A DNA stretch of 64,000 nt, taken from Verrucomicrobiota bacterium (GTDB lineage Bacteria; Verrucomicrobiota; Verrucomicrobiia; Limisphaerales; UBA8199). The position numbers were made by a program, and so were the translations under genes. The notes beneath the pieces are model-generated. The model saw only the letters and a list, made by a program, of their open reading frames with translations. It did not search any database and had not been told where the DNA came from. This document shows positions 2,707 through 58,073 of this stretch, one piece after another; the stretch's first letter is position 1, and each line of letters begins with the position of its first letter. The stretch lies in assembly GCA_050011195.1 (NCBI GenBank), contig JBEKJO010000027.1, forward strand, positions 2,385 through 66,384. Direction: 5' to 3'.

Positions 2707-4962
2707 CTACTTCCTTTGTTCGGGGCTGGAATCGAGTGCGGCCAGGGCTTTCTGCGCCTCGGGATAATCCTGGCGCAGGCGCAACGCTTCCATGAATTGA
2801 GCTTTGGCCTCGGGCCGCCGCCCCTGCCGCAGCAGAGAGACCCCTAAGTTGAAATGGGTCTGGAAATCCTTCGGGTTGATCTCCAGCGCCTTCTGATAGT
2901 GAGGGATCGCCTCCTCCAGTTTATTCTGCGCCCCCAGCGCGTTGCCCAGGTTGCTCTGCGCTCCGGAATGGTCCGGCTTTAACCGAACCGCCTCTCGAAA
3001 CTGCCGCTCGGCCTCCGGGTATTTCCCCTGCATCGCGTAACAAATCCCCAGTCCGTTGCAGCTTTCCGCATGATTCGGATCGAGCCGCAATGCGGTCAGG
3101 TAATGCGCAATCGCTTCCTCCAGCTTGCCCGCCTCCGCCAGGTGATTCGCCAGATTATGCTCCGCGCTTTCATAATCCGGCTGCAATTGGAGCGCGGCGC
3201 GAAACTCAGCGATCGCCGCCTCAGCTTTTCCTTGCGCCTGCAAGGCCATCCCCAGGTTATGGTGGGCCTGGCTGGAATTCGGATTGAGCCGCAACGCCTG
3301 CTGGTAATTGGCGACCGCGTCGGCTGCTTTCCCCGCGTCCACCTGCGCATTGGCCAGATTGAAGTAATACAGGTATTCGGGCTTGAGCCGCACCGCTTCC
3401 GAATGGTGCGCGATGGCCTCCGCGAACCGTCCTTGACGCAGCAGCACGGTGCCGAGATTGTTGTGAGCCTCCGCGTAGTTCGGCTCGGCCTTAAGCGCGG
3501 CTTCATAATGCTGGACGGCCTCCGCCAGTTTGCCCTGCCGGCTATAGAGATTCCCGATATTGTAATGCGCCATGTAATTGCCCTCCACCGCCGTGATCAT
3601 CCGCTGGAAAAGGGTCTCGCTGTTCTTCCACCAGGCAATCTGCTTTCGCGTCAGGGCCATACATCCCGCCAGCACCACCGCGGTGGCGATCCCCAGCCCC
3701 GCCTTCGGCACCCGCCATGTGCCGGCCAGATCCCAAACGCCCCAGGCGACCGCGACGAAGATGCCGATCAGAGGAATATACGTATAGCGGTCCGCCATCG
3801 TCTGCATGCCCACCTGAACCAACCCAATGACCGGCACCAGCGTGCCCACATACCAAAACCAGCCGACTGCCAAATACGGACGGCTGCGAGCAAGCCGAAT
3901 CACCGCCACTGAGGCCGCCAGAAGAGCCATTGCCGCCAGGCCCACCTCCCATGCAGGCCAAGGCACCTTCCTCAAGTAGAGCGCCGCCAGATGTTCCGGC
4001 CAGAGCATCTTTCCGAGGTAACGGACATAGGACATCAAGGCGTTGGCCACCCGGGCGCCGATGGGGAGATTGTTTACATCCAGAACCGCTCCCCCGCTTT
4101 GCTGCACTTGGAAGGTGACGACGCACGAAGCCGCGCTGAGCAACAGGAACGGCACCTTCTCCAGGAGCAAGCGGAGTGATGGAGTGGTGGAGGGTTGGAG
4201 TGTTGGGAAGGAAAGGCGGCGCAGTGGCCAGAAATCGAGCAGCAACAACACGAACGGCACGGTCACCAACATCGGCTTGCTCATCAGGCCCAGCGCGAAC
4301 AGCAGCAGCGACAGGAGATAATAAAACGAAGATGGAGGATGGAGGATGGAGGATGGGGTTGGACCGACCGCATGTTGCGTGCTGCGGATTGTTGGATTCT
4401 GCATTCTGCATTCTGCATTCTTCCTTCCTCCTTCTGCCTTCTCCGCGTAACGCACATAAGCCCACAGGGTCAGCATGAAGAAGAACGTGCTCAGGACATC
4501 TTTCCGCTCGGCGACCCAGGCTACCGATTCGACATGCAGCGGATGGAGCGCAAACAGCGCCGCGACAACTCCGCTGCGCCACAGCGCGCCGGTCATTTTC
4601 CTAAGCAGGAGAAACAGCAAGAGGGTGTTGGCGATGTGGAAGAGCAGGCTCGTCAGGTGATGCCCCGCCGGCCTCATCCCATAGAGCTGGCAATCGAGTA
4701 TATGCGAAAGCATCGTGACCGGATGCCAATTGCGCGCGACGTCGCTGTGCCAGACCCAAGCCAGCCCCTTTGCGCTCAAGCCCGCCTGCACATAAGGATT
4801 CGCGGTGACGTAATCCGTGTCGTCGTAGTTGACGAATTCGTGCCCGGTCACCGGCCAATAAACCACCAGCGTGCTCAACGCCAGAAAGAGGCAGACGCAA
4901 AGCAAAGGCTTCCAAGACGGTTCTTGGCGGGGTGCTTCAACTGCGGCCATGACGGACGGCAC
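2707..4962 (-). CDS. Polytopic membrane protein with C-terminal TPR repeats (TMTC-like GT-C glycosyltransferase architecture)
   Basis: The N-terminal multi-TM region carries NYDDTDY and HPLHVESVAWV motifs typical of TMTC/DUF1736-like proteins. About ten TPR repeats follow (NLG..L...G....A...Y..AL...P). The ORF is intact but contains repeat-derived inserts. Confidence 0.75.
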   Translation of the reverse strand: MPSVMAAVEAPRQEPSWKPLLCVCLFLALSTLVVYWPVTGHEFVNYDDTDYVTANPYVQAGLSAKGLAWVWHSDVARNWHPVTMLSHILDCQLYGMRPAGHHLTSLLFHIANTLLLFLLLRKMTGALWRSGVVAALFALHPLHVESVAWVAERKDVLSTFFFMLTLWAYVRYAEKAEGGRKNAECRMQNPTIRSTQHAVGPTPSSILHPPSSFYYLLSLLLFALGLMSKPMLVTVPFVLLLLDFWPLRRLSFPTLQPSTTPSLRLLLEKVPFLLLSAASCVVTFQVQQSGGAVLDVNNLPIGARVANALMSYVRYLGKMLWPEHLAALYLRKVPWPAWEVGLAAMALLAASVAVIRLARSRPYLAVGWFWYVGTLVPVIGLVQVGMQTMADRYTYIPLIGIFVAVAWGVWDLAGTWRVPKAGLGIATAVVLAGCMALTRKQIAWWKNSETLFQRMITAVEGNYMAHYNIGNLYSRQGKLAEAVQHYEAALKAEPNYAEAHNNLGTVLLRQGRFAEAIAHHSEAVRLKPEYLYYFNLANAQVDAGKAADAVANYQQALRLNPNSSQAHHNLGMALQAQGKAEAAIAEFRAALQLQPDYESAEHNLANHLAEAGKLEEAIAHYLTALRLDPNHAESCNGLGICYAMQGKYPEAERQFREAVRLKPDHSGAQSNLGNALGAQNKLEEAIPHYQKALEINPKDFQTHFNLGVSLLRQGRRPEAKAQFMEALRLRQDYPEAQKALAALDSSPEQRK
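4173..4212. repeat. Octamer tandem array embedded in the CDS 2707-4962
   Basis: The sequence reads ggagtgat ggagtggt ggagggtt ggagtgtt. On the minus strand it is translated as ...FPTLQPSTTPSLRLL... Confidence 0.7.
4331..4444. repeat. Heptamer tandem arrays embedded in the CDS 2707-4962
   Basis: There are about four ggatgga units and then gcattct x3, followed by tccttcc/tccttct/gccttct units. The reverse complement matches the intergenic array at 8706-8746 (aaggcagaagg.ggaatgcagaatgcagaa). Confidence 0.7.
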
Positions 4963-6333: not shown

Positions 6334-8406
6334 ATGGTCCCGGCTCTTTTGCTTATGAGTGCTGTTTTTCAGTCACCCGACCAGAAAAGCGGAGCGGATC
6401 GCGATTGGCTGGCTGGTCTCCGCGTCGATGCGGAAAAGGGCGATGCCGTTGCCCAGTTCACTCTGGGCGTAGTCTACGGCGATGGCGTAGGCGTGGCGAA
6501 GGATGAGGCGGAGGCGGTGAAGTGGTATCGTAGGGCCGCCGAGCAGAATCACGCTCTGGCTCGGAACAATCTGGGAGCTTGCTACCACAATGGCCAAGGC
6601 GTGGCGAAGGATTATCTGGAAGCGGTGAAGTGGTATCGCAAAGCCGCCGAGCAGAATCTCGCGCTTGGTCAATGTAACCTGGGCGTGTGCTACGGCAACG
6701 GCTACGGCGTGGCGAAGGATGAGGTGGAGGCGGTGAAGTGGTTCCGCAAAGCCGCCGAGCAGAATCTCGCGCTTGCTCAATATAATCTGGGCGTTTGCTA
6801 CGAGCGCGGCCAAGGCGTGGCCAAGAACGAGGTTGAGGCGGCGAAGTGGTACGCCAAAGCCGCTGAGCAGAATGACGCCGGTGGGCAATACAATCTAGGG
6901 CATTGCTACTACAAAGGCGAAGGCCTGCTGAAGGATGAGGCGGAGGCGGTGAAGTGGTGGCGCAAAGCCGCCGAGCAGAATCACTCGCTGGCTCAATGCT
7001 GGCTGGGCGTCTGCCATGCGCGTGGCCAAGGCGTAGTGAAGGATGAGGTGGAAGCGGTGAAGTGGTATCGCAAAGCCGCCGAGCAGAATATCGCCGCTGC
7101 TCAATGCTATCTCGGCTGGTGCTACACGGAGGGCCGAGGCGTAACGAAAGATAAGGTGGAGGCGGTGAAGTGGTATCGCAAAGCCGCCGGGCAGGATGAC
7201 GCCGATGCGCAATTCAATCTGGGCGTCTGTTACGAGAATGGCCAAGGCGTGGCCAAGGATACGGTAAAGGCGGTGAAGTGGTATCGCAAGGCCGCAGCCC
7301 AGGATCACGCCGATGCTCAATTCAATCTGGGCGTCTGTTACAAGAACGGCCAAGGCGTGGCAAAGGACGAGACGGAGGCGGTGAAGTGGTATCGTAAAGC
7401 CGCCGAGCAGAATGACCCTGATGCACAATACAATTTGGGCCTCTGCTATGCCAAAGGCCAAGGCGTGACCAGGGATACGGTGGAGGCAGTGAAGTGGTAT
7501 CGCCGGGCCGCCGCGCAGAATCACCCTCAGGCCCAATACAGCCTGCAGGGCGGCAGTGCTCCTTCAAGCCAACAAGAGCTGTCAAGGCTTGACGGCTTGG
7601 TGAGCCGCCTTAACAGTTTAATTGGACTTTCCAAGGTGAAGGAAGACGCCGCCCGACTCATTAACCTGGTCAAGGTCAGACGGATACGCCAGCAGAAAGG
7701 CATGAGGGTGACTCCCATGTCGCTACACTTGGTCTTTACCGGAAACCCGGGAACTGGCAAGACCACGGTAGCTCGTCTCCTGGGCGAGATTTACCATGAA
7801 ATTGGTATCCTGTCGAAAGGGCATCTCACTGAGACCGACCGGAGTGGGCTCGTGGCCGGTTACCTGGGGCAGACGGCGATCAAAGTGAGTGAGGTTGTCC
7901 AAGGAGCATTGGGGGGCATCCTCTTTATTGACGAGGCGTACTCGCTGGCACAGGAAGCACAGCGAGACCAATTCGGCAGAGAGGCGATTGATACCCTCAT
8001 AAAGCGAATGGAAGATCACCGCGACGATTTGATCGTCATCGTGGCGGGATACACGGAACCGATGAAAGCTTTTCTCGAATCAAATCCCGGACTTCGCTCC
8101 AGGTTTAACAAATTCCTACACTTCGATGATTATTCCCCACAGGAGCTTTTCCAGATCTTTACCAAGTATTGTGAGGACGAGGGCTACGCCTTCGCCAATA
8201 CTTCTGCTGGCAAAATTAAGGCCCTCATAAACCTGGCGCGCGAGAGGCGTGCCGCGAACTTCGGCAATGCCAGGACCATTCGAAATCTGTTTGAACAGAC
8301 GATCTCTAACCACGCAAACCGTGTCGCAAGTATTACAAACCCATCACAAAGCGACTTGACCACCATTTTGCCCCAAGATGTTCCAACCGTTGCCGCCACA
8401 AGATAA
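6334..8406 (+). CDS. Sel1-repeat (about 10 copies) protein fused to a CbbX/SpoVK-type AAA+ ATPase
   Basis: Ten 36-aa units of the form A..NLG.CY..G.GV.KD..EAVKWYRKAAEQ are present. The C-terminal part has Walker A GNPGTGKT, Walker B ILFIDEAY, and NPGLRSRF. Confidence 0.9.
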   Translation: MVPALLLMSAVFQSPDQKSGADRDWLAGLRVDAEKGDAVAQFTLGVVYGDGVGVAKDEAEAVKWYRRAAEQNHALARNNLGACYHNGQGVAKDYLEAVKWYRKAAEQNLALGQCNLGVCYGNGYGVAKDEVEAVKWFRKAAEQNLALAQYNLGVCYERGQGVAKNEVEAAKWYAKAAEQNDAGGQYNLGHCYYKGEGLLKDEAEAVKWWRKAAEQNHSLAQCWLGVCHARGQGVVKDEVEAVKWYRKAAEQNIAAAQCYLGWCYTEGRGVTKDKVEAVKWYRKAAGQDDADAQFNLGVCYENGQGVAKDTVKAVKWYRKAAAQDHADAQFNLGVCYKNGQGVAKDETEAVKWYRKAAEQNDPDAQYNLGLCYAKGQGVTRDTVEAVKWYRRAAAQNHPQAQYSLQGGSAPSSQQELSRLDGLVSRLNSLIGLSKVKEDAARLINLVKVRRIRQQKGMRVTPMSLHLVFTGNPGTGKTTVARLLGEIYHEIGILSKGHLTETDRSGLVAGYLGQTAIKVSEVVQGALGGILFIDEAYSLAQEAQRDQFGREAIDTLIKRMEDHRDDLIVIVAGYTEPMKAFLESNPGLRSRFNKFLHFDDYSPQELFQIFTKYCEDEGYAFANTSAGKIKALINLARERRAANFGNARTIRNLFEQTISNHANRVASITNPSQSDLTTILPQDVPTVAATR

Positions 8407-8706: not shown

Positions 8707-8746
8707 AGGGAAGGCAGAAGGCGGAATGCAGAATGCAGAAAGCGGG
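8706..8746. repeat. Heptamer tandem array
   Basis: The sequence reads aagggaa ggcagaa ggcggaa tgcagaa tgcagaa. Confidence 0.65.
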
Positions 8747-14601: not shown

Positions 14602-14681
14602 GCGGCAACTGGTAACTGGTGCTTGGTGATTGGTGGAGGGCCACGACGGCCAAGGGCCGATTCCCCATCACTAATCACCGA

Positions 14682-15578
14682 TTACCTTGGCATCATCTTC
14701 AACAAAGTCTCCGCCATTTCGGAAGGCGTCGGCGCGACGCGGATGCCGGCGTCTTTAAACGCGGCGATCTTTGCCGCCGCCGTGCCTTTGCCGCCGCTCA
14801 CAATGGCCCCCGCATGGCCCATGCGCCGGCCGGGCGGCGCTGTCGCGCCCGCGATGAACCCGGCGACCGGCTTCCGGCAGTTGCTCCGGATCCAGGCGGC
14901 GGCTTCCTCTTCCGCCGAGCCGCCGATTTCGCCAATCATAATGATGCCATGCGTGTCCGGGTCGGCCTGAAACAGTTTGATGACGTCCAGGTGCGAGGTT
15001 CCATTGACCGGGTCACCACCGATGCCGACGCAGGTGGATTGGCCGACGCCACGGCAGGTGAGTTGCCAGACGGCCTCGTAAGTCAACGTGCCGCTGCGCG
15101 ACACCACGCCAACGTGGCCCTGCTGGTGAATGTAGCCGGGTGCAATGCCAATGCGGCAGCCGCCCTGCGAATCCGTGCCGGCGCCGGGGGTGACGATGCC
15201 CGGGCAATTCGGTCCGATCAGCCGCGTTTGCTTGCCTTCCATCGCCCGCTTCACCTTAACCATGTCGTTCACGGGGATGCCTTCCGTGATGCAGACGACG
15301 AGGTCCAGTCCGGCATCCACGCCTTCAAGAATCGCATCGGCCGCGAAAGCCGGGGGGACAAAAATGGCCGACGCCGTCGCCCCGGTTTGCTTGATGGCCT
15401 CGGCCACGGTGTCGAAGATCGGGACCCGGTTCTCGAACAGTTGCCCGCCCTTGCCTGGCGTGACACCGGCGACGATTTGCGTGCCGTAGGCGAGGCTGAG
15501 CTGGGTGTGCCGCGCGCCGAAGCTGCCGGTGATGCCCTGGACCAGAACGCGAGTTTGCGGGGTGACGAGGATGGACAT
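14682..15578 (-). CDS. sucD: Succinyl-CoA synthetase alpha subunit
   Basis: [11 protein letters not shown]...GVTPGKGG...GPNCPG are characteristic motifs. Confidence 0.95.
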
Positions 15579-19359: not shown

Positions 19360-22314
19360 ATGATGCCAATGACACGAACATGTGCTGAATGCGGGGCCAC
19401 GCTAGCGGGCGACACCGCGGCTGGCGCTTGCCCGGTTTGCGCCTTGCGGGGCGCGCTGGAACTGTCCGGCGCTACGGCGGAGGTCGTGGTGACTGAGAAA
19501 CCCGGCGACCAAATCGGGCATTATAAGCTGCTCGAAAAGATTGGCGAGGGCGGGTGCGGCATCGTGTACATGGCCGAGCAGATCAAGCCCATTCGCCGGC
19601 GTGTCGCTCTGAAGATCGTCAAGCTGGGCATGGACACCAGGCAGGTCATCGCCCGGTTCGAAGCCGAGCGCCAGGCCCTGGCCCTGATGGACCATCCGAA
19701 CATCGCCAAAGTGCTCGATGCCGGGGCCACCGATACCGGCCGGCCCTACTTCGTCATGGAGTTGGTGCGCGGCATCAAGATTACCGACTACTGCGACCAG
19801 CACCACCTGTCCACCCCTGAGCGGCTGGACCTGTTCATGCAAGTCTGCCATGCCATCCAGCACGCACACCAGAAAGGGATCATCCATCGCGACATCAAAC
19901 CTTCCAACATCCTGGTTACTTTGCTGGACGGCGTGCCCATTCCCAAGGTGATTGATTTCGGCATTGCCAAGGCCACGCAGCAGCCATTGACCGATAAGAC
20001 CCTGTTTACCGGCTTCCACCAGTTCATCGGCACGCCAGCCTACATGAGCCCGGAACAGGCGGAAATGGGCCCGCAGGATATAGACACGCGCAGCGATATT
20101 TACGCCCTGGGCGTGCTGCTCTACGAGCTATTAACGGGGCGCTTGCCATTCGAACAGAAGGAGATGCTTGAGGCTGGCCTGGACGAAATGCGGCGGCTCA
20201 TTCGGGAGAAAGAGCCGCCCAAACCTTCGACCCGCCTGAGTACATTGGCGCACGGCGACCTCACTGCTATTGCCAGAAGCCGCCAGACCGAGCCACCCCG
20301 GTTGCTCCACTTGGTGCGTGGCGACTTGGACTGGATCGTAATGAAATGCCTGGAGAAGGACCGCGCGCGCCGTTACGACACGCCGAACGGGTTGGCGCGG
20401 GACCTGGAGCGGCACTTGAACCATGAGCCGGTGACCGCCGCGGCGCCGAGCCCGTTCTACCGAATGGGCAAATTCGTCCGCCGCCATCGCGTTGGGCTCG
20501 CAACCGCAGCGGCCCTATTGGTTCTGGTGGTCGCTGGGGTGGTGGCAAGCGTGTGGCAGGCGGTGCGCGCGACCAAGGCCGAGGGGCAGGCGCGAACGGT
20601 GGCTACGTTCTTGAAAAACATGCTGAACGGCGTGCGCCCATCCCGAGCGTTGGGACGGGACACGAAAATGCTCCGGGAAATTTTGGATAGAACCGCCGGC
20701 AGCCTTGGAAAAGACCTCCGGAATCAACCGGCGGTGGAGGCCGAGCTCCGCAGCACGGTCGGCGGAGTTTACCTGGACCTCGGCGAATATGAAAAGGCCG
20801 AGACCATGCACCGCGCGGCGCTGGCGTTGCGAAAGGAAGTTTTTGGTTACGAGCACCCGGACGTCGCCGAATCGCTCGACGAGCTTGGCAACGCCCTTTA
20901 CCGGCAAAGCAAGCTGACCGAAGCCGAAACCACGCATCGCGAGGCCCTGGCGCTGCGGAGAAAACTGCTTGGCAGCCGTCATCCCAAAGTGGCTGCCTCG
21001 CTCAACAATCTGGCCAACACACTCCGGGAGCAGGGCAGGCTGGCGGAGGCTGAAGCCATGTTCCGCGAGGCGCTGGTGTTGCGGAGAGAATTGCTGGGCA
21101 GTAACCACGCGGAAACCGCCGAGACGGTGGACAACCTGGGCGCAATCCTCTCGCTCCAGGACAAGTTTCAAGAGGCCGAGACGATGCAGCGCGAGGCGCT
21201 GGCGTTGGACAAACGGCTGCTCGGCAACGACCATCCCGACGTGGCCCTCTCGCTCAACAACCTGGCCGATACGCTCACGGCCGAAGGCAAGCTGGACGAG
21301 GCTGAGGCCAGGTCCCGCGAGGCGCTGGCGTTGCGACGGAAAGTGCTCGGCGCGGAACATCCCGACGTGGCTTTCTCGCTCTTCAATCTGGCCAATGTGC
21401 TCTTGCGGCAGGACAAGCTGGCGGATGCCGAGGCCGCCCATCGCGAGGCGCTGGCCATGCGGCGGAAATTGCTCGGCAACGACCATCTCGCCGTGGCTGG
21501 ATCGCTCAATAACGTGGCTGCAGTGCTGATCGCCGAAGATAAGCTGGCCGAGGCGGAAACCGCGCAGCGCGAGGCCCTGGCGATCCAACGCAAAGCTTTG
21601 GGCGGCGAGCATCAAGATATTGCCGGCTCGCTCGCCAATTTGGCTTACCTGCTCCAGCGCCGAGGCCAGTTGGCCGAGGCCGAGGCGACGCAGCGCGAGG
21701 CGCTGGCCATGCGGCGGAAGCTGCTGGGCAATGAGCATTCCGATGTGGCCGCCTCGCTTGCCGGCCTGGCCGACGTGCTCTACGACCAACACAAGCTGGC
21801 GGAGGCCGAAGCCTTGCAGCGGGAAGAGTTGGCGATGCGGCGAGAGTGGCTGTCAAAAACGTCTCCGCACCTGCCCGCCCTGGTCAACAACCTCGTTGAT
21901 GCCTTTTTCCGCTTGACGCGCACCGTCCTGGCGGCGGAAGAGTTTGCCGAGGCCGAGCGGCTGGCGCGCGAGTGGCTGGCCCTTGGCGAAAAGGAATTGC
22001 CCGACGACTGGCAGACGTTCAATGCCCGCAGCATGCTGGGCAGCGGCCTGCTGGGGCAGAGGAAGTTCACCGAAGCCGAGCCGCCCCTGGTCTTCGGCTA
22101 TGACGGAATGAACCGGCGGCAGGAAAAGGTCCCGCCTGAATACAAATTCCGCCTGCGGGAGAGTCTAGAGTGTTTGGTGCGCCTCTACCAGGCCACGGGC
22201 CGGCCTGACCAAGCTGCCGAATGGAAGAAGAAGCTCGCAAATTACAGCGCGTCTGAGCCCGACCAGAAGGCCAACGCCCCCAAACCGCAGCCGCCCTTGC
22301 CCGGCAGCCCTTAA
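19360..22314 (+). CDS. Ser/Thr protein kinase with a TM segment and a long TPR (TPR_10/12-like) array
   Basis: It has an N-terminal CxxC..CxxC and the kinase motifs [20 protein letters not shown] and SPEQ. A TM helix is followed by about ten repeats of the form AE...REALA.RRKLLG..HPDVA.SLNNLA. Confidence 0.9.
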
Positions 22315-24837: not shown

Positions 24838-24890
24838 GCCCCACCACTCCACCACTCCACCACTCCACCACTCCATTACTCCATTCCCCA
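24838..24890. repeat. Octamer tandem array (reverse orientation)
   Basis: The sequence is ccaccact x4 followed by ccattact and ccattccc. Confidence 0.75.
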
Positions 24891-28746: not shown

Positions 28747-30384
28747 CTAAGCCGGTTGCGCGGCGGAGGGGGCGGCTCGACGATGGCGCAGGATGCGGCT
28801 AATCAGCATGATCCCGGCAATTCCGGCACAGGCCCAGCCGAACCAGTCGCCGTGTTGGTGGTAAAAGGTCGGGAGGCGCTTTTGGCCGGGGGCGAGCAAA
28901 GGGATTTGGGCGGTCAGGAAGCCGGGGCCATAGATGGCGCCGTGGTCGTCGCGAAAGACCTGGCGCAGGCGGCCCTGGGCGTCCACCCAGCCGGTGAGGC
29001 CGTTGTTGGAGCAGCGGATGAGGGGGAGAGCGTTTTCGACGGCACGGAAGAGGGCGGCGGCGGCATGCTGCCACTGGGCGGAGCCTTCGCCAAACCAGCC
29101 GTTGTTGGTGAGGTTCACGAGGAAATCGGTGTCGTCGTCAGCGGCTTCGCGGGCGAGGTGGGGGAAAATGTCCTCGAAGCAGATCAAAGGCGAGGTTTTC
29201 ACATCTGGCTGCGTCAGGACGAAGGGGACGGGGCGGTCGCCGGGGGTGAAGCCGCCTTCGATAGGCGTGAACCATTTGACGAAGGGGAGCCAGCGCACCA
29301 GGGGAATGTATTCGCCGAAGACGACGAGGTTGCGCTTACGATAGCGGGCGACGAATTGGCCGTCCGGGTTGACGAGGAAGCTGGCGTTGTAGAACTCGTA
29401 GTTATCGGGGGCGGCGGGCGGCGCAGGCCGGCCAATGTCGTCGGAACCGAGGATGAGCCACACGCGATGCTGGCGGACGAGGTTGGTGATGGCGGGGTAG
29501 ATATTGGTGTCCCAGCGGGCGTAGCTGGGGACGGCGGCTTCGGGCCATACGAGCAGGTCGGTCCGATTGGTCAGGGCCTGTTCGGAGAGGCGTATGAGGT
29601 CGCGGAAGCGCTCGCGGTCGCGGCTGGAGTCCCAGATCAGCGTTTGGGGAATGCTGGGTTGAATAAGGGTGACGTTCAGGGTGCGGTCGGGGGCGGAATC
29701 CCGCGCCAGTTGCCGGAAGCCGAAGTTGAAGAGGAGGGCGATAACCAGCACGGGGAGAATGATTTCGCCGACCCAAGCGGAACGCGTGGTCGGGCGCAGC
29801 ACGACCATCAGGCCGGCGGAGAGCAGCGAAAGCGAGACCCAAACAACCAGGAACGACACGCCGTAGATGCCGGTGACGGAGGCGATCTGGATGAGGGGCA
29901 CCATTCGATACTGGGACGCGCCCAGCAGGTTCCAGGGGAAGCCGGTGAAGAGCCGGACTACGAGCATTTCGAGGGCGACCCAGAGGGCGGCACCGTAAAT
30001 GGCCCAGAGGGTGCGCCGGGTCCAGCTCCGGGCCAGGAGACCCACCGGGGACAGCAGCCAAACCCAAGTGGCGGGATAAAGGGCGAGGTAGGCGCTGAGG
30101 GAAAGCCAGCCGGCGGCCGGGCCAAGGGGGATCGAGTGCCAGCGGTAGGGAATCAAGAGGAGCCAGCAAAGGGAAGCGAGGTAATAGGCCAAGCCGGCGA
30201 CGTAGCCGATGCGGAAGCTTTCTGCGCCGCTCCTGCCGAGGGCGGTCGCGAGCATCAGCGCGGGGGCGATCCATGCGAGGCCGGCGATGCCGATTTTGGG
30301 GAAGGAGGCGGCCAGCAGGAGTCCTGCGAGAGTGGCCGCGAGGTAACGGCTGCGCATGAATGGGCTGGCCCAGAAAGTTCTCAC
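28747..30384 (-). CDS. lnt: Apolipoprotein N-acyltransferase
   Basis: An N-terminal multi-TM region is followed by a C-terminal nitrilase-like domain (LVWPE...ICFE). An alternative start is at 30357. Confidence 0.9.
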   Translation of the reverse strand: MRTFWASPFMRSRYLAATLAGLLLAASFPKIGIAGLAWIAPALMLATALGRSGAESFRIGYVAGLAYYLASLCWLLLIPYRWHSIPLGPAAGWLSLSAYLALYPATWVWLLSPVGLLARSWTRRTLWAIYGAALWVALEMLVVRLFTGFPWNLLGASQYRMVPLIQIASVTGIYGVSFLVVWVSLSLLSAGLMVVLRPTTRSAWVGEIILPVLVIALLFNFGFRQLARDSAPDRTLNVTLIQPSIPQTLIWDSSRDRERFRDLIRLSEQALTNRTDLLVWPEAAVPSYARWDTNIYPAITNLVRQHRVWLILGSDDIGRPAPPAAPDNYEFYNASFLVNPDGQFVARYRKRNLVVFGEYIPLVRWLPFVKWFTPIEGGFTPGDRPVPFVLTQPDVKTSPLICFEDIFPHLAREAADDDTDFLVNLTNNGWFGEGSAQWQHAAAALFRAVENALPLIRCSNNGLTGWVDAQGRLRQVFRDDHGAIYGPGFLTAQIPLLAPGQKRLPTFYHQHGDWFGWACAGIAGIMLISRILRHRRAAPSAAQPA

Positions 30385-30430: not shown

Positions 30431-30526
30431 TGGAGTGATGGAGTGATGGAGTGGCGGAGTATTGGAGTATTGGAGTATTGGAGTATTGGAGTGGTGGAGT
30501 GATGGAGTGATGGAGTGATGGAGTTT
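30431..30526. repeat. Octamer tandem array, 12 units
   Basis: The units are tggagtga x2, tggagtgg, cggagtat, tggagtat x3, tggagtgg, tggagtga x3 and tggagttt. The array sits in the divergent lnt / ClC intergenic region. Confidence 0.9.
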
Positions 30527-30619
30527 GGGAGCGAGTTCAGAATTGCGTCTCGTCAAAGGGGCGATTTATCGCGATATTGGCTTGTGCAGTTTTTGAGGAA
30601 CACAAAGGTTGTGGGAGAG

Positions 30620-32776
30620 ATGCACGCGTTTTTCCTGCGGCATTGGCAGCGGGCACTGCGCGTTCGGGGCCGGATTCGCTTCAGCGAAGAGGCGTTTCAC
30701 CTGGTGCTGGCCGGAGGTGTGGGGGTGATCGGCGGGCTGGTGAACATCTTTTTCTACTACGCGACGGAGTCGGTAAGGCTGTTCTTCCTGCGGCGGCCGG
30801 GCGAGCTGGTCGAGGTGGCGGAGAAGATGGTCCCCTGGCAGCGGGTGCTGACGCCAACGTTGGGCGGGTTGTGCGCGGGGCTGGTGTTGCATTGGGGCCT
30901 GCGGATGGCGGGGCCGCTGCATTCGAGCAACCTGCTGGAGGTGGTCGTGGCGGGTGATGGGCGTTTGCCGCTGCGGAGCGGGATGGTGAAGTTCCTGTCA
31001 TCGCTGGTCACCATCGGGTCGGGGGGATCCATCGGGCGGGAGGGCGGCATCGTGCAACTGGCGGCGACGCTGGCGTCCAAATGGGGCCAGCTCGCGAAAT
31101 GGCAGCCGTATCGGCTGCGGCTGCTGGTGGGATGCGGGGCGGCGTCGGGGATTGCGGCGGCGTATAACGCGCCGATTTCCGGCGCGGTGTTTGCGGCGCT
31201 GATCGTGCTGGGCAACTTCTCGATGAGCCTGTTCGCCCCGCTGGTGTTCGCGTCGGTGGTGGCGACGATGGTATCGCGGAGCTTCTTCGGCATCCGGCCA
31301 TGGTACACAGTGCCGCCGTTCGAGTTTACGAGCCTGACGCAATTGCCGTGGTTTGTGTGCCTGGGGATCGTGAGCGGCGGGATGGGGGCGGCGTTTATGA
31401 AGTTGCTGAACCGGACCGAGGCGGCCTTCAAGAAGGTGCCGGCGCCGATCTATGTCCGGCTGGCGCTGAGCGGGCTGATGGTGGGGCTTATCGCGATATG
31501 GTTTCCCGGCGTGTGGGGCAATGGCTACGTGGTCACGAACCGCATCCTGCGGGGCGAGTATGGCGCGCCGGCTTTCTCCGCCGGGGATATCGCGGACCTG
31601 GAATCGCTGGCCCATAGATTGAAGCAGCCGGCCGAGGACGACGGGGTCTCGAAGTATCTGGCGGCACAGATCGCGCCAGCCACCTTGAACCTGTTGTCAA
31701 ATTATACTGGGAATGGGGACGTGAAGCTGCAGGAGGCGCTGGCAGCCGACCTGAATCGAGTCATCCAGGGCGGGCCGCTTTACGAGGCGCAGCGATTTAG
31801 GAACGTAACGTTGTCCGCGAAGACGATCCGGCTGCTCGAGCGCAAGCCGCAAGGGCTGGACCTGGCACGGTTGAATCGGAAGCTGCTGCTGGAAGCTTGC
31901 CCGCGGGAGATGTCCCGGACGCACTGGCGCGAGGCGGCGGCGGCGGGGTTGTTGGCGCTGGCGGGGTTGTTCGTGGCGAAGCTGGTAGCGACGCTGGCGA
32001 CGGTTGGTTCGGGCGCAGTGGGCGGGGTGTTCACGCCCACGCTGTTTCTGGGAGCGGGGTTGGGGGCGACGTTTGCCTTGTCGCTGCAACAATTGGGTGC
32101 GGGAGAGGATTTGCCGATTGCGGCGTTCGCGGTGGTGGGCATGGGGAGCATGTTGGCGGCGACCACGCGCTCGCCGTTGCTGGCGATGATCATGGTCTTC
32201 GAGATCTCGCTGGACTATTCGTTGATGCCGCCGCTGATGCTGGCGTGCGTGGTGTCCATCCTGGTGGCGCGCCGGTTGCATCCGGCATCCATTTACACCG
32301 AGCCGCTGCGGCGCAAGGGGTTGATCGTGCCGCAGGAGGCCACGGCGTCGGAAGCGGCGGCGGAACGGACGGTCGGGGATATTATGCGGGCGCCGGTGCC
32401 GCCGGTGCGCGAGACGGCGACACTGCGGGAGATCGCCGACCGCTTTCTGACCGGGGCGAACAACTTCCTGCCGGTGGTGGATGCAAAGAACCAGTTAGTT
32501 GGTTTGGTGGCTTTGCATGATTTGAAAGAATACCTGGGGGCGGAAGAGGAATTCCGGGGGGTGATTGCGTACGACTTCATGCGGCCGCCACCGGCCTGCG
32601 TGACGCCCAATCAACGGCTGCTGGAGGTGCTGCCGGTGGTGCTGGCGAGCGAACAGCGCAATATTCCGGTGGTGAGCACGCTGAAGGAGAACCGCCTGGT
32701 CGGGGCGCTGCCTCGTGGGGAGGTGCTGGGGATATTTTCGGAAGCGATTGCCGCGAGCAGCAAGACGGAGGCGTAG
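30620..32776 (+). CDS. ClC-family chloride channel/transporter with C-terminal CBS pair and an internal insertion
   Basis: GSGGSIGREGG, GVWGNGY and GSGAVGGVFTPTLFLGA are ClC motifs, and a CBS pair lies at the C-terminus. The start is taken at MHAFF (30620). Confidence 0.9.
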   Translation: MHAFFLRHWQRALRVRGRIRFSEEAFHLVLAGGVGVIGGLVNIFFYYATESVRLFFLRRPGELVEVAEKMVPWQRVLTPTLGGLCAGLVLHWGLRMAGPLHSSNLLEVVVAGDGRLPLRSGMVKFLSSLVTIGSGGSIGREGGIVQLAATLASKWGQLAKWQPYRLRLLVGCGAASGIAAAYNAPISGAVFAALIVLGNFSMSLFAPLVFASVVATMVSRSFFGIRPWYTVPPFEFTSLTQLPWFVCLGIVSGGMGAAFMKLLNRTEAAFKKVPAPIYVRLALSGLMVGLIAIWFPGVWGNGYVVTNRILRGEYGAPAFSAGDIADLESLAHRLKQPAEDDGVSKYLAAQIAPATLNLLSNYTGNGDVKLQEALAADLNRVIQGGPLYEAQRFRNVTLSAKTIRLLERKPQGLDLARLNRKLLLEACPREMSRTHWREAAAAGLLALAGLFVAKLVATLATVGSGAVGGVFTPTLFLGAGLGATFALSLQQLGAGEDLPIAAFAVVGMGSMLAATTRSPLLAMIMVFEISLDYSLMPPLMLACVVSILVARRLHPASIYTEPLRRKGLIVPQEATASEAAAERTVGDIMRAPVPPVRETATLREIADRFLTGANNFLPVVDAKNQLVGLVALHDLKEYLGAEEEFRGVIAYDFMRPPPACVTPNQRLLEVLPVVLASEQRNIPVVSTLKENRLVGALPRGEVLGIFSEAIAASSKTEA

Positions 32777-53839: not shown

Positions 53840-55285
53840 TTAAGCCGCAACGGGCGGGGGCGGGAAATGGGGTTTGCGCGGGTCGGTGGCGGTGATGACG
53901 ACGCTGACGGATTTCTGGTTGAAGCCTTTGAAGCCGCCGTGGCGCTGGAGGTTTTCGAGGTGGCTGCCCAGCGCGCCTTGTTTCATGAACAGGCCGAATT
54001 CCTCGCGCGTAATCAGGTTGGCGGACAGGAGGCGCTCGGCGCGCTCGCGGCGGACGGGCCAGCGCTCGCCTTCGGTGAAGGCCTGGCGCAGGAAAGGGAA
54101 ATCGGAAAACGGCTTCATGGTGTTGACGCCGGAGGCCTGCAACTGGCCGCGCAGAAGGTCGAACTCGAACCGCGCTTCGAGATGGTGCAGGCCGGCTTCG
54201 AGGAGGCTCTCGCCATGCAAACCGACCCACAGGCCGACCGTGCCCAGGCGCGAGGCGGGCGGGAGTTTGTGCGTCGAGAAATCTATCAGGGTTTCCTCCG
54301 GCAGCAAATCCACGTCGGCAAACACTACGATGCCGGCGACGGGTTGCTCGGAGATTTGCGCGCCCCAGCCGGCCTCGGCGCCGGCGTAGTAGCGTTCGCG
54401 TTTGACGAAGCCTAGCTTCAACAGGAATACGACCAGGTCCACGAAGTGCTCGCGGGAGCAGCGGAAGGTGTGATGGTCGTGGTTGCCCCAGCCAAGGCCA
54501 AGCAGGTCCTGACGGTGCTTCTGAATCCGCGCGGCGCGGTTGCGGCTCTCCCAGTAGGCGCGCTCGGCTTCAAAGAACAACTGGCAGGCCAGGTCGCATC
54601 CCACCAGGCGGACGACGCGGTCAAGGGTTTGGCGGGCGGCGCGGATGCCGTCGGCGTCGGTGGGAAACAGACGCCGGCGGGTCCGCCAGAGTTCGCGGGC
54701 TTTGATAATGTTCGTCAGTTCGAGGCGCTTGAGCGGGGCGGGCACGAACCCGAGATAGGCGCGGCGCTCGACGGCTTCGAGCTGCGTCCCGTTTTCTTCG
54801 GCGACCAGGATGCGGCGATAGCGTGAGAAGGGTTCGCCTTCGGGTTCGCCCGGGAGGTTGTGGCAGGCGATGAAATCCGCGATGGACTCCGGCCGCAAGG
54901 CCAGCAGAGATGGGCTTTCGTTGTGGCCCCGGCGCAGGAGGACGCGGGGGAGGGTGGTGCGGGGATGTTCAAAGACGGTCTCGCCATTGGGAGTTTCGGC
55001 CTGCGGGTCGGGCACGAAGCCCACTGCGCGCAGAGCTTTCTCCTCACTCGGGGCCAGCACGAGATGGTCGGTCCATTCGAAGAGGTCGGTGCCGGTCTCG
55101 TCGCGCATTCGGGCTGCCAACTGGCGGGCGAAGGTGTTCCGTTGCAGGAACAGGGCGATGCGGTCGCGCAGGAACTGTTCGGCCTCATTGGCCAGCGGCC
55201 AGTCGAAGGGCAGGGGAGCACGGGCAGGGCGGGTGGCGGCTTTCATGGGCCTTTTGGCAGGACGGCTTTTCGTTGCGCTGATCAT
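53840..55285 (-). CDS. Conserved-looking hypothetical protein (481 aa), possibly VOC/glyoxalase-like modules
   Basis: It is a long ORF with host-like composition. The motifs GNHDHHTFRC..HFVDLVVFLLKLGF and GLHHLEARFEFD resemble VOC metal-binding strands, so the assignment is tentative. Confidence 0.6.
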   Translation of the reverse strand: MISATKSRPAKRPMKAATRPARAPLPFDWPLANEAEQFLRDRIALFLQRNTFARQLAARMRDETGTDLFEWTDHLVLAPSEEKALRAVGFVPDPQAETPNGETVFEHPRTTLPRVLLRRGHNESPSLLALRPESIADFIACHNLPGEPEGEPFSRYRRILVAEENGTQLEAVERRAYLGFVPAPLKRLELTNIIKARELWRTRRRLFPTDADGIRAARQTLDRVVRLVGCDLACQLFFEAERAYWESRNRAARIQKHRQDLLGLGWGNHDHHTFRCSREHFVDLVVFLLKLGFVKRERYYAGAEAGWGAQISEQPVAGIVVFADVDLLPEETLIDFSTHKLPPASRLGTVGLWVGLHGESLLEAGLHHLEARFEFDLLRGQLQASGVNTMKPFSDFPFLRQAFTEGERWPVRRERAERLLSANLITREEFGLFMKQGALGSHLENLQRHGGFKGFNQKSVSVVITATDPRKPHFPPPPVAA

Positions 55286-55406
55286 AACTGGTTAGCAGGT
55301 AAAGTAGTCGAAACGCGCGGTTCTGCAACCGGGAGGGCGAGCGTCCTCGCGAGCCCTGATTTCTTGGGATGTTTGGGCTCGCGAGGACGCTCGCCCTCCC
55401 GGGCAT

Positions 55407-56360
55407 TCAGGAACTAGCGCTGGTGTAGCGGCGCAGAGAGGCGCGCCAGCCCCATTCGGAGACGCAAAAGCATACGACGCTCATGGCCAGCAGCAGGAGC
55501 ACTGGCCCCGGGGAGTCCAGTTTGTCGGCCAGCAGGCGCACGGGGACGTTGGAAACCAGCAGCATGGGGAGAGCAAAGGTGAACACGGCCTTGAACAGCC
55601 CGCCAAAGGCCTCGTCGGGCATGCGGGCGATGTTGAACAGGTTGTAATAACCCCAGACAATCCCCTGCGCGCGCACGGTCCAGAAGCTGATGCCGGCCAG
55701 GAGGAACATCAGGGAGTAGTGAATCGCGATGCCCGCCACACAGAGCGCCAGAAAACCCAGCACCTGCACAAGCGTGGGGACCAGGTGCAGTTGGCGGGCG
55801 GCATAGACCATCACCGCCAGCGCGGAGGAGGCGTTGACGAAGGCCCCGAGGTCCACCTGCCGGAGCGAGACGACGAAGCGTGTGTTGACCGGGAGCAAGA
55901 GCAGGAAGTCCAGTTTGCCGCTGCGCACCAGCTCGGACAGGTTGGTGCAGTTGACGAGAAAGAAGGCCTGGAAGACCTGCTGAATGAAGTGGCTGGCGCC
56001 AATCAGCATGACCACCTGCCACTTGGTCCACGTGCCGATATGGTCGGTGTGCAGGTAGAGCACGCTGATGAAGCTCAGTTGCAGGCCGAACCAGAGCAAC
56101 TCGACGAGAATCCAGAGCAGGAAGTTGCTCTTGAAGCTCATCTCGCGCGCGACGGAGTTCTTCCATAAGGCGGCGTAGATGGAGAGGTAGCGTGAGGCGT
56201 GATGCGTGATGCGTGAAACGTGAAACGTGAAACGTGAAACGTGATGCGTGAAACGTGAAACGTGATGCGTGAAACGTGAAGGGAGGGGCGTGGTGCGTGG
56301 TGCGTGGTGCGTGCCGCTGTTCTCCACTTCGGATTTCGGATTTCGGGTTTCTGGCTTCAT
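55407..56360 (-). CDS. ABC-2 type permease (DUF990/ABC2_membrane_6-like) with a repeat-encoded N-terminal extension
   Basis: The core is RYLSIYAALWKNSVAREMSFKSNFLLW... The first ~45 codons are translated from heptamer arrays (SRFTHHVSRFTHHVSRFTFHVSRITHHASRY). Confidence 0.7.
   Translation of the reverse strand: MKPETRNPKSEVENSGTHHAPRTTPLPSRFTHHVSRFTHHVSRFTFHVSRITHHASRYLSIYAALWKNSVAREMSFKSNFLLWILVELLWFGLQLSFISVLYLHTDHIGTWTKWQVVMLIGASHFIQQVFQAFFLVNCTNLSELVRSGKLDFLLLLPVNTRFVVSLRQVDLGAFVNASSALAVMVYAARQLHLVPTLVQVLGFLALCVAGIAIHYSLMFLLAGISFWTVRAQGIVWGYYNLFNIARMPDEAFGGLFKAVFTFALPMLLVSNVPVRLLADKLDSPGPVLLLLAMSVVCFCVSEWGWRASLRRYTSASS
56192..56350. repeat. Heptamer tandem arrays (GTGAWRC about x13, GTGGTGC about x4, CGGATTT x3)
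   Basis: The plus strand reads gtgaggc gtgatgc gtgatgc gtgaaac x4 gtgatgc gtgaaac x2 gtgatgc gtgaaac ... gtggtgc x3 ... cggattt cggattt cgggttt. Confidence 0.9.
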
Positions 56361-56364
56361 GCTG

Positions 56365-57171
56365 TCACCCTCCCACTGCCGAATACTTCTTTATGCCCCG
56401 GCGCCAGGCAAGGCGCGCCACGCCGTAAGCGGCAACGACCCATAGGGCTTGGATCAGCAAACCGCTCACCAGGTCCGCGCCCGTTGTCTTGCCCATATAG
56501 ATGCTCACAGGAAAGTAGAGTTGATAAGGGAACGGCGTGAAGTAGAGCGCCTGTTCGACGCCGCGGGGCAGGATGTCCAGCGGGAAGAGGTGGCCGCTGG
56601 CGAGGTATTCGAAGGCAAACAGGATGAAGATGAACGTCGAGACCTCCAGCACCCAAAACGCCAGCATCGCCATCGCGTAGGACATGAAGAACTGGAGCAA
56701 CGCCGTCAGGACCGTCGAGAGCAGGAAGCAGCCCAAGGCGGTCCAACTCGGCGGCAGCACAAAGTACTGGTGCAGGTAAAGGATGAAGAGCGCCAGCGGT
56801 GTGACCGCCACGGCGAGGTACGTCACCCGGCCGGACAGGAACAGGCAGAGCCGGTACCAGAGGTAATCAATCGGCTTGAGCAGGAACTGGCTGATGTTGC
56901 CATCCTTGATGTCGGCGGCAATCTGCCAATCGTCCTCGTTTACCGCCGTCAGGGCGTCCACCACGGTGATGAGCAGGTAATAGGAGATCATCTGCGCGAG
57001 GGAATAGGTGCCGACGGTGGTTCCGGCGCCCTTGTCCGAGTAGATTTTCTGCCACACGTACAGCATGGCGATGAGCGGGATGAGGCCGAACACCGCTCGC
57101 GCCAGGAAGTTGAACCGGTAGGTCAGGTTGTTCTGAATCCCGATATTGATGACATGCCAGTATTTCTTCAT
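56365..57171 (-). CDS. ABC-2 type permease (DUF990/ABC2_membrane_6-like)
   Basis: The start is at MKKYWHVINIGIQNNLTYRFNF (57171), and the C-terminus is ..KKYSAVGG. Confidence 0.75.
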   Translation of the reverse strand: MKKYWHVINIGIQNNLTYRFNFLARAVFGLIPLIAMLYVWQKIYSDKGAGTTVGTYSLAQMISYYLLITVVDALTAVNEDDWQIAADIKDGNISQFLLKPIDYLWYRLCLFLSGRVTYLAVAVTPLALFILYLHQYFVLPPSWTALGCFLLSTVLTALLQFFMSYAMAMLAFWVLEVSTFIFILFAFEYLASGHLFPLDILPRGVEQALYFTPFPYQLYFPVSIYMGKTTGADLVSGLLIQALWVVAAYGVARLAWRRGIKKYSAVGG

Positions 57172-57403
57172 CTTGCCGGTTGGGGAAACCGTTGAAACGG
57201 TTTCCCACGCTCCGAGTGCGCCAGGCACCCCGCTGAAGCGGGGTGTTAAATGAGGGCCGATCGCCAACAGCGAAGAAATCTGTCCTGCGCCCTTGAAAAG
57301 CACAAGCGTAATCCCTCCGTGACGGCGGGGAGGGGCGCATCCGCGCACTGCCCCCGAGAGTGGTCCGATCTGGTGGAATCTCGCGCCTGCTTCGACTCAA
57401 ACG

Positions 57404-57476
57404 CCCCTCCTCTCCCCAGCCCTCTCCTCCATTTCATGGAGGAGAGGGAGTTGTGTCACGGGTATCTCGGGGGGGC
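57404..57476. repeat. Family D hairpin element
   Basis: The hairpin is ccctctcctcc atttcat ggaggagaggg. Confidence 0.75.
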
Positions 57477-57596
57477 AGTCGCGCCCGGCATTTGCGCCCG
57501 CCTTCACTGACCGGCTACGCACAAGGGCGGAATAAGGCTGGCGTTTTCCAGGCGGCGGGGTGAAGATGGGGCCTGCCGTTCACAACCAACAAAGCG

Positions 57597-58073
57597 ATGA
57601 TTGATCAAAAGCACTGTCCGTTTTGCAGGACGCCGGCGACCACCGGGTGCGAGCACCTGGCGGTGGCGGCGGAAGGGCGGGATTTTGTCCGGCGTTGCAT
57701 TGAGCTGTGCCAGGGAGAGAAGCAGTGGCGGGCCCTGGGCGAGGGGCGGCGGCGGCAGCGCCTCGTTACCGGCGAATGGTCGCCGGAACGGGAAGATTAC
57801 ACGTGGCTGGAGACGGCGTTCTGCGATGAGTTTCTCAAGCGGCTCGCCTGGTTCGGAGGAATGGAATACGAATGGCGGTCCGGACCCAAGTCCACGCAGA
57901 CGGGTTTCTGGGTGTTGCTGTGGTCGAAAGACCCGCGGCAGCTCTGGTGGGAATTGCGCGACGAGTTCGAGCGGCAGGCGCAGGAACGGCGGTCGCCGCG
58001 GGGCGGCAGCCCGAAGGCCAAAGGCAGAAGCCCGAAGTTCGAGAGCCGGGGCGAAAGATCATTGCCGCTTTGA
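57597..58073 (+). CDS. Hypothetical protein with an N-terminal Cys cluster
   Basis: It begins MIDQKHCPFCRTPATTGCEH and has a Trp-rich middle and a basic tail. It does not overlap the downstream gene once that gene's start is corrected. Confidence 0.5.
   Translation: MIDQKHCPFCRTPATTGCEHLAVAAEGRDFVRRCIELCQGEKQWRALGEGRRRQRLVTGEWSPEREDYTWLETAFCDEFLKRLAWFGGMEYEWRSGPKSTQTGFWVLLWSKDPRQLWWELRDEFERQAQERRSPRGGSPKAKGRSPKFESRGERSLPL

Follow-up and report, generated by a model that had tools for sequence, protein, structure and literature searches.

We analysed a window of 64,000 nucleotides (nt) from a bacterium of the Limisphaerales (phylum Verrucomicrobiota; contig JBEKJO010000027.1), with a focus on the heptamer tract at the 5' coding end of an ABC-2 permease gene on the minus strand (55407..56360, called permease 2 below). 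Our analysis indicates that the tract is probably a compound heptamer microsatellite, which was built by slippage, selected to stay in frame, and translated as a length-variable tail of a permease that is always ON, with no ON/OFF switch. The initial annotation of the tract had proposed slipped-strand phase variation. One part of this proposal stood, because the length of the tract does change (by 21 nt at 99.7% core identity); the part on ON/OFF switching was not supported, because no OFF junction was found among 142.

The open reading frame (ORF) 55407..56360 encodes 317 amino acids (aa) from the ATG at 56360-56358, with MKPETRNPKSEVENSGTHHAPRTTPLPSRFTHHVSRFTHHVSRFTFHVSRITHHAS preceding RYLSIYAALWKNS. 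The product is a PF06182 (ABC2_membrane_6) permease (E = 1.2e-45; 156.6 bits against a cut-off of 22), and the profile was matched over positions 1-229 of 229 at residues 88-316. The 168-nt extension in front of the conserved core (56193-56360) consists of exactly 24 heptamers in a single register, both degenerate linker pairs included. On the sense strand it contains three blocks, of CCGAAAT-type, then CGCACCA, then CGTTTCA/CGCATCA units, with two linkers between them:

56326..56360, minus strand: Block 1, five heptamers (ATGAAGC CAGAAAC CCGAAAT CCGAAAT CCGAAGT), encoding MKPETRNPKSEV
56360-56358 and 56327-56325, minus strand: the start codons in Block 1, ATG1 and GTG12
56312..56325, minus strand: Linker 1, two degenerate in-register heptamers (GGAGAAC AGCGGCA), common to relatives and not repeated
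56291..56311, minus strand: Block 2, CGCACCA x3, encoding (T)HHAPRTT
56277..56290, minus strand: Linker 2, CGCCCCT CCCTTCA, in register
56193..56276, minus strand: Block 3, 12 heptamers CGTTTCA or CGCATCA, the last being CGCCTCA
55407..56192, minus strand: conserved permease core, from R57 (CGC 56192-56190) to the stop, with Met74 at 56141-56139

Block 3 is read as four heptads (SRFTHHV, SRFTHHV, SRFTFHV, and SRITHHA), that is, three heptamers per 7-residue repeat of SRFTHHV and its variants. Its units 4-6 are a perfect 21-nt duplicate of units 1-3. The two unit variants are interspersed, and the longest run of identical units is CGTTTCA x4. The repeat register is carried on by the first heptamer of the core (CGCTACC). 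At the position of Block 2, relatives have CGCAACA x3.

Tandem Repeats Finder reported, on the plus strand, an array at 56189-56281 with 13.3 copies of period 7 (84% matches), which was also scored at period 21 (4.3 copies, 88% matches). Two further arrays were GCGTGGT x3.7 at 56288-56313 (100% matches) and TTCGGAT x3.4 at 56328-56351. These arrays confirm the tract that the initial annotation had described at the 5' coding end of the permease, which is refined here to 24 units in one register. The tract is far above chance expectation. It was identical in at least six independent metagenome assemblies, and thus it is not an assembly artefact.

On the comparison of related sequences, the tract must be translated. 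We calculated the entropy of codons 57-73 (RYLSIYAALWKNSVARE), the 17 codons between the tract and Met74, in 146 distinct sequences. The summed entropy at codon positions 1, 2, and 3 was 9.0, 6.4, and 20.8, respectively, and several residues were invariant despite synonymous codon changes. Residue 74 was Met in 104 of the 146 sequences and Thr or Leu in 41. Because codons 57-73 show the pattern of coding sequence and Met74 is variable, translation must begin upstream of R57. The only canonical in-frame starts upstream of the core are ATG1 and GTG12, both 5' of Blocks 2 and 3, and no in-frame ATG, GTG, or TTG exists between codon 12 and Met74. The initial annotation had placed the start at ATG 56360 and had seen no alternative canonical start between the tract and the core, and our results are in accord with both statements.

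The same question was explored in related junctions. Loci were retrieved from DNA by the permease core only, independently of gene calls, so that the sample is unbiased by start-codon calls. From 80 species-level Limisphaerales genomes and 80 metagenome contigs, 142 distinct junctions were obtained. In 115 of the 142, a start codon (101 ATG, 13 GTG, 1 TTG) lies -6 to +15 nt from the upstream stop, and the frame is open from the junction start through to the core. The spacer of the remaining 27 is closed in the core frame, and an in-frame start of its own is present. Of 77 long open extensions, only 3 also have an ATG 45 nt or less from the core, compared with 18 of the 27 closed spacers, and 24 of the 27 have some start codon (ATG, GTG, or TTG) in this interval. 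The proteins of closed spacers begin with MKTFARY, MHVKRYL, MNLKRYF, and so on; other closed spacers have an in-frame ATG further upstream. Judged from these counts, open extensions and private starts are complementary across the junctions.

An alternative is that the tract is an untranslated spacer and that the permease starts at Met74 or at a non-canonical codon downstream. The composition of the extension is non-coding-like, with rare codons, and a gene caller picked Met74 in one relative (P0130), both of which would fit this explanation. However, residues 57-73 are conserved as protein through synonymous changes, and position 74 is Thr or Leu in 41 of 146 sequences. Moreover, the frame is open, with a start codon abutting the upstream stop, in 115 of 142 junctions, and where it is closed a private start stands just before the core. 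We therefore regard an untranslated spacer as very improbable. P0130 (244 aa from MSFKSNF) was also considered as a natural OFF allele and was rejected, because a GTG start that the gene caller overlooked puts the DNA of its locus (L167) in frame.

Heptamer repeats in coding regions are known from other bacteria. The neuO gene of E. coli K1, an O-acetyltransferase gene of the CUS-3 prophage, contains an (AAGACTC)n variable number tandem repeat (VNTR) in its 5' coding region (PMC13001214). This repeat has 3-53 perfect units, and cultures hold cells with n-1 and n+1 units; 42 of 64 complete genomes (65.6%) are OFF, and the heptad number affects NeuO activity, as cited there from earlier work (PMC13001214). 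The permease tract resembles neuO in that the heptamer repeat lies just after the start codon, three units make one 7-residue repeat, the unit number needs to be divisible by 3, and the repeat is translated as a variable-length N-terminal tail. Three heptanucleotides correspond to one translated heptad, as in an in-frame coding VNTR of the NeuO type, and the heptad number varies between strains while the frame is kept. Tryptic peptides of the tail predicted from the sequence are NPKSEVENSGTHHAPR, FTHHVSR, and ITHHASR. However, neuO has perfect units, whereas the permease tract is a mosaic of three blocks with two unit variants and at most four identical units in a row. In addition, neuO is a phage-borne surface modifier, whereas the permease gene is a chromosomal gene of housekeeping type in a free-living verrucomicrobium.

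In Haemophilus influenzae, the promoters of hmw1A and hmw2A have 13-38 perfect TGAAAGA units, and an AACAACC heptamer simple sequence repeat (SSR) lies in a TonB-dependent receptor gene (PMC2651432). These heptamers act on transcription or by frameshift, and single-unit differences exist between strains (PMC2651432). The permease tract is like them in having heptamers at the 5' end of a gene, and in H. influenzae the copy number is altered by slippage. However, neither 13-38 perfect units, nor effects on transcription or frameshift, nor single-unit variation between strains was seen for the permease tract.

We then consider how the reading frame depends on the unit number. When one or two units were added or removed in silico, the core frame stayed open upstream but had no ATG, GTG, or TTG before Met74. 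The simulation thus agrees with the claim in the initial annotation that a change of one unit would uncouple the core from its start. No OFF configuration, that is, no junction without an in-frame start, was found among the 142 junctions. Among the junctions with a heptamer-array score of at least 21, 21 of 24 were in frame, whereas one third would be expected if the frame were free.

The lengths of the tract vary among relatives in a regular way. The lengths of the closest homologous proteins step through 285/289/296/303/310/317 aa. For pairs of loci with at least 93% core DNA identity, the spacer length differences were 0 (44 pairs), 21 (5 pairs), 63 (6 pairs), and 3 nt (1 pair). Differences of 21 nt and 63 nt were found at 99.7% and 93.7% core DNA identity; in one strain pair with 99.7% identical cores, the spacers are exactly 21 nt apart. 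In close relatives the extension has 15, 18, or 24 heptamers in a single register. Together, the linkers and Blocks 1 and 2 are constant at 12 units, with Block 1 having 5 units in most of them, and only Block 3 varies (3, 6, or 12 units). The window allele is the longest seen, with 12 units in Block 3 compared with 3-6 in relatives. Because 15 units are the norm in its sub-clade, the 24-unit allele is a derived expansion.

The 317-aa product was found on 11 contigs, of which six come from six samples, and the 24 units are identical in all six. These contigs do not represent one clone: against the window, L003 has 36 substitutions in 5 kb and is divergent further downstream, and a few single-nucleotide polymorphisms set L005 and L006 apart. 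The initial annotation had looked to unit-number variability across strains as the sign of a switch, and had held that an invariant number would speak against it. The differences of 0, 3, 21, and 63 nt are not those of a switch, and the number of 24 units is invariant across the six samples as far as assemblies can show.

These results bear on whether the tract is a true contingency locus, in which gain or loss of a single heptamer switches the permease ON or OFF within populations, as in neuO. The anatomy fits this explanation, with a 5' coding heptamer repeat of 13 near-identical units. As in a contingency locus, a tandem repeat with a unit length not divisible by 3 lies within the reading frame between ATG 56360 and the functional core at R57, and the simulated gain or loss of one unit abolishes the functional protein. 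The recent length change between near-identical strains points the same way. So may the two sister contigs of the P0130 locus (L168 and L169), which begin inside a related tract; this break may be caused by heterogeneity or by repeat-induced assembly failure. However, natural ON and OFF unit numbers were not found (0 of 142 junctions OFF, against 42 of 64, or 65.6%, for neuO), and all the observed length changes are divisible by 3, with only three-unit steps seen. The long uninterrupted run of identical units that would give a high slippage rate is missing from the tract, whose longest run is 4 units, compared with 3-53 in neuO and 13-38 in hmw. Six samples share one and the same allele. The OFF-style product of the window strain itself, 244 aa from Met74, gave no record in an exact look-up, and P0130 is in frame from its GTG. 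It is thus quite unlikely that the tract is a contingency locus.

The junction at which the tract lies is formed by two paralogous permease genes:

56365..57303, minus strand: upstream paralogous ABC-2 permease gene (permease 1), PF06182, E = 3.5e-20
56368..56374, minus strand: Shine-Dalgarno-like GGGAGGG, 8 nt 5' of ATG 56360, within the last codons of permease 1

The start of permease 1 is uncertain (57303 or 57348); the JGI call is 312 aa, and a conserved MKKYWHV is read from 57171. Its TGA lies at 56367-56365, and the ATG of permease 2 (56360) comes 4 nt later. A Shine-Dalgarno sequence inside the end of permease 1 is the layout expected for translational coupling.

The length-variable, always-ON tail may be explained as follows. 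Replication slippage would very likely have made a heptamer microsatellite grow behind the translationally coupled start codon of permease 2, ahead of the core; its seed may have been the sequence ...TCACGCTAC of the gene itself. We infer slippage as the mutational process and selection as the filter. Because 7 and 3 share no factor, the array is open in all frames. Because changes of one or two units strip the core frame of every start codon, selection lets through only three-unit changes (21 nt, one heptad). Repeated gain and loss of three units would also homogenise the units. The outcome would be a polymorphism of protein length from strain to strain that stays ON. An array at the junction would be coding or non-coding according to which side of the start codon holds it.

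The extension differs from the core in composition. Its GC content is flat over the three codon positions (0.61/0.59/0.63), compared with 0.56/0.37/0.80 for the core. The extension is also rich in codons that the core seldom uses (TCA 22% against 5%, GCA 26% against 5%, CCA 23% against 8%, and AGA 10% against 1%). The peptide variants found across species (F/I, F/H, and V/A in SRFTHHV) are the three reading phases of TCACGTT and TCACGCA. We also compared the identity of units within a locus with that of units at the same position in different loci. The values were 68% against 48% for Block 1 and 62% against 44% for Block 3, whereas the linkers gave 34% against 37%. By this measure the arrays evolve in concert, with no such effect in the linkers. 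The units have been homogenised differently by lineage (CCAAAGT, CCGAAAC, CCGAAAA, CAGAAGG). In sequence terms, the extension behaves like repeat DNA caught up in a reading frame, rather than like a sequence shaped for its peptide.

Many relatives start with MNLKRYL or MKTFKRYF, 14-25 nt after the upstream stop. Judged from such starts, the tail is dispensable for the family, and we infer that it is tolerated rather than required. The N-terminal tail, 56 residues rich in His, Arg, Ser, and Thr, is probably disordered. In an AlphaFold2 model, residues 1-41 have no secondary structure (predicted local distance difference test, pLDDT, <50), and a helix runs from about residue 43 into the core. 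A reading of the heptads as a coiled coil (V and F at a/d spacing) was also considered, and was abandoned because nothing supported it.

Arrays of this kind were found throughout the clade. About 60 of 81 distinct period-7 arrays in about 160 loci sit at the permease-permease junction, which is a clade-wide hot-spot for short tandem arrays, whether they are read or not. The junction arrays are coding in the majority of species and non-coding in the rest. Closed spacers hold non-coding arrays such as 9-mers (L007) and GAAGGAT x4 (L013), and an 'SPKSKV' array is out of frame in the spacer of L044. The spacer arrays of five loci (L055, L057, L069, L008, and L019) pair with their own reverse complement as hairpins. 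About 35 GGAGGRC heptamers lie in the 715-nt permease spacer of L020. Paired, opposed Acido-Lenti-1 RNA motifs (RF01687), above the gathering score, were found in the same locus at L020:2579-2765 and L020:5274-5459, and one pair is within the 715-nt spacer.

In a neighbour-joining tree of the cores, the type-B loci L007, L108, and L008/L103 are nested among type-A relatives. Although closely related to the window, they have a completely different, non-coding spacer (9-mers or TTTAAC octamer hairpins) and a short, ancestral-looking N-terminus. This position suggests that their junction was replaced, perhaps via recombination.

Outside the clade, (TCACGYW)n arrays were found directly 5' of genes in Desulfococcaceae HSG8, Vibrio coralliilyticus, and Xylella fastidiosa, where gene callers yield spurious 'SRFTFHV/SRITHHA' proteins or N-terminal over-extensions (P0135-P0254). 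The heptad array was also considered as a protein family. This was rejected, as a synthetic long-array query matched mostly short ORFs mis-called across (TCACGYW)n. No description of heptamer arrays in Verrucomicrobia was found in the searchable literature.

We scored arrays in the 64-kb window with one scheme (periods 4-12, array score of at least 14) and in 30 dinucleotide-preserving shuffles of it. Six arrays of period 7 and four of period 8 were found. The window had none at periods 4-6 or 9-12, and the 30 shuffles had no array at all. Arrays at gene boundaries lie at 2643, 8710, 14618-14686, 30431, and 58008, and the following are used below:

30431-30524, intergenic: octamer array TGGAGTGA x11.8, 90% matches
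14618-14640 and 14664-14686, co-directional gene junction: TGGTGMT heptamer array and its inverted complement 23 nt off, a 'hairpin of arrays'
8710-8740: GAAGGCA/GAATGCA heptamer array directly after a TGA stop
58008-58037: AGCCCGA-type heptamer array, encoding the C-terminal SPKAKGRSPKFES of a 158-aa ORF (57597..58073)
4173-4206, 4331-4356, and 4396-4442, in a minus-strand gene: arrays in a 751-aa protein, encoding the loops FPTLQPSTTPSL, PSSILHPPSS, and EKAEGGRKNAECRMQN

The array at 30431-30524 lies between a divergent lnt-like gene (28747..30384, minus strand) and a gene for a CLC channel with CBS domains (30515..32776, plus strand). The hairpin-of-arrays architecture of 14618-14686 is also seen in the non-coding permease spacers of several relatives.

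Unit families recur at unrelated loci. The GGAGTGRT octamer family is present at 2643-2676, 4173-4206, and 30431-30524, and on the opposite strand at 24841-24883. The AATGCAG family is present at 4396 and 8710 in the window and at L070:272-303 in a relative; AAACGTG was found at L007:1786-1819 and AAAGTCC at L045:5344-5377. In all four GAA-type arrays of the window (4/4), the purine-rich strand coincides with the sense strand of the gene at that site. The gene at 2707..4962 (minus strand) encodes a 751-aa membrane protein with C-terminal TPR repeats, and one octamer array and two heptamer arrays leave its frame open. This gene is the second example in the window of arrays incorporated in frame. 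Its array at 4396-4442 (sense GAATGCA/GAAGGCA) encodes EKAEGGRKNAECRMQN, and in other species GAATGCA/GAAGGCA units give the permease an N-terminus that reads MKAEGRRQKAE or MKAECRMKNAE. Coding repeats of long period are also present in the window, namely the Sel1 repeats of a Sel1+AAA protein (6462-7540, 108 nt x10) and TPR-like repeats in a 984-aa ORF (21172-21839, 126/252 nt).

Heptamer arrays of cyanobacteria carry the family name short tandemly repeated repetitive (STRR) sequences. Those between hupS and hupL have 7-bp units and hairpin potential, and their function is unknown (PMC2670836). The arrays of the window are like STRRs in that 7-bp units form short dispersed arrays at many sites beyond chance, in recurring families, often between co-transcribed genes, and can form hairpins. 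The type-B spacers of relatives and the window arrays at 14618-14686 fit the description well, with an intergenic location and hairpin potential. However, the permease tract is translated as part of an ORF and lacks an inverted partner; the host belongs to the Verrucomicrobiota (Limisphaerales), and octamers occur alongside heptamers. By its sequence, the tract belongs to a class of 7/8-nt arrays that gather at gene boundaries, above all at the permease junction. We would call it neuO-like in anatomy and STRR-like in origin.

Several points weigh against a translated microsatellite that is always ON. The contigs with the allele of the window were collected by exact matches to the protein, a search in which length variants cannot appear, and the unbiased metagenome scan did not sample the window strain. 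The comparative data are consensus assemblies, in which a minority of OFF cells within a population is invisible, and the loci are phylogenetically related, so that their counts cannot be taken as independent. The overall quality of the AlphaFold2 model is low (mean pLDDT 57; predicted template modelling score, pTM, 0.35). Block 1 arrays stand beside the upstream stop even where they are untranslated (L018, L044, L048, and L123), a hint that nucleic acid, and not protein, is constrained.

The arrays could then be chiefly a nucleic-acid element whose translation is incidental. Such an element might act as a periodic RNA or DNA platform for protein binding, keep a coupled start unstructured, or set the relative expression of the permeases. 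Arrays are present at the junction whether coding or not, and those in non-coding spacers are often paired with their inverse complement, like the STRRs between hupS and hupL. Block 1 holds 5 units while its sequence homogenises. The CACG core of Blocks 2 and 3 is invariant across species, the sense strand is purine-rich in the four GAA-type arrays of the window, and the extension has no codon-position signature. However, the units differ widely by lineage (CCAAAGT, CCGAAAC, CAGAAGG, and CCGAAAA), so that no single binding motif exists, and many relatives have no arrays at all. The RNA fold of the tract is little better than that of shuffles (z = -2.2; 4 of 200 shuffles fold equally well). The tract has no inverted partner, the only candidate being a weak 75% match of Block 2 to 56401-56424, and Rfam has no family at the tract and none in the type-B spacers of relatives. 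On balance, we consider a chiefly nucleic-acid role unlikely.

A wider form of this idea is that the 7/8-nt arrays of the Limisphaerales are the verrucomicrobial counterpart of STRRs, a repeat system, specific in its sequence families and actively maintained, that acts at the RNA or DNA level at operon junctions, with the tail as a by-product. Some hints of it exist: the arrays persist whether coding or not, the count of Block 1 is fixed despite homogenisation, and only periods 7 and 8 are found. Such a counterpart seems rather unlikely to us. If it were true, the real role of the element would be to set the expression of both permease genes.

The surroundings of the permease pair were also examined. 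No ABC ATPase gene adjoins the two PF06182 genes (55407-57348). Upstream of the pair there are a divergent 158-aa ORF and then a HAD-NUDIX gene; downstream there is a 481-aa ORF with no Pfam match. The arrangement is the same in relatives. A further feature lies directly 3' of the permease 2 stop:

55331..55400, no strand assigned: perfect 26-nt inverted repeat GGGAGGGCGAGCGTCCTCGCGAGCCC with an 18-nt loop

This inverted repeat is unique in the window and has no T-tract. It is probably a hairpin at the end of the transcript, separate from the repeat system. Rfam gave only sub-threshold microRNA-like matches to it, and a scan of 55200-57700 for promoters and terminators gave nothing above shuffled expectation.

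Our preferred explanation, a slippage-built tract that is selected in frame, would provide a natural counter-example to the rule of thumb that a gene is phase-variable if its 5' coding region holds a repeat with a unit length not divisible by 3. Here, a neuO-like anatomy would correspond to an in-frame length polymorphism that is locked ON across the clade, and genome scans for contingency loci that use sequence only would over-call the permease tract. In subdivision 3 of the Verrucomicrobia, STRR-like arrays of 7/8 nt gather at gene boundaries and enter protein termini and loops. They would thus offer a tractable case of how new disordered segments of proteins arise from microsatellites, and would extend the study of STRRs to a second phylum.

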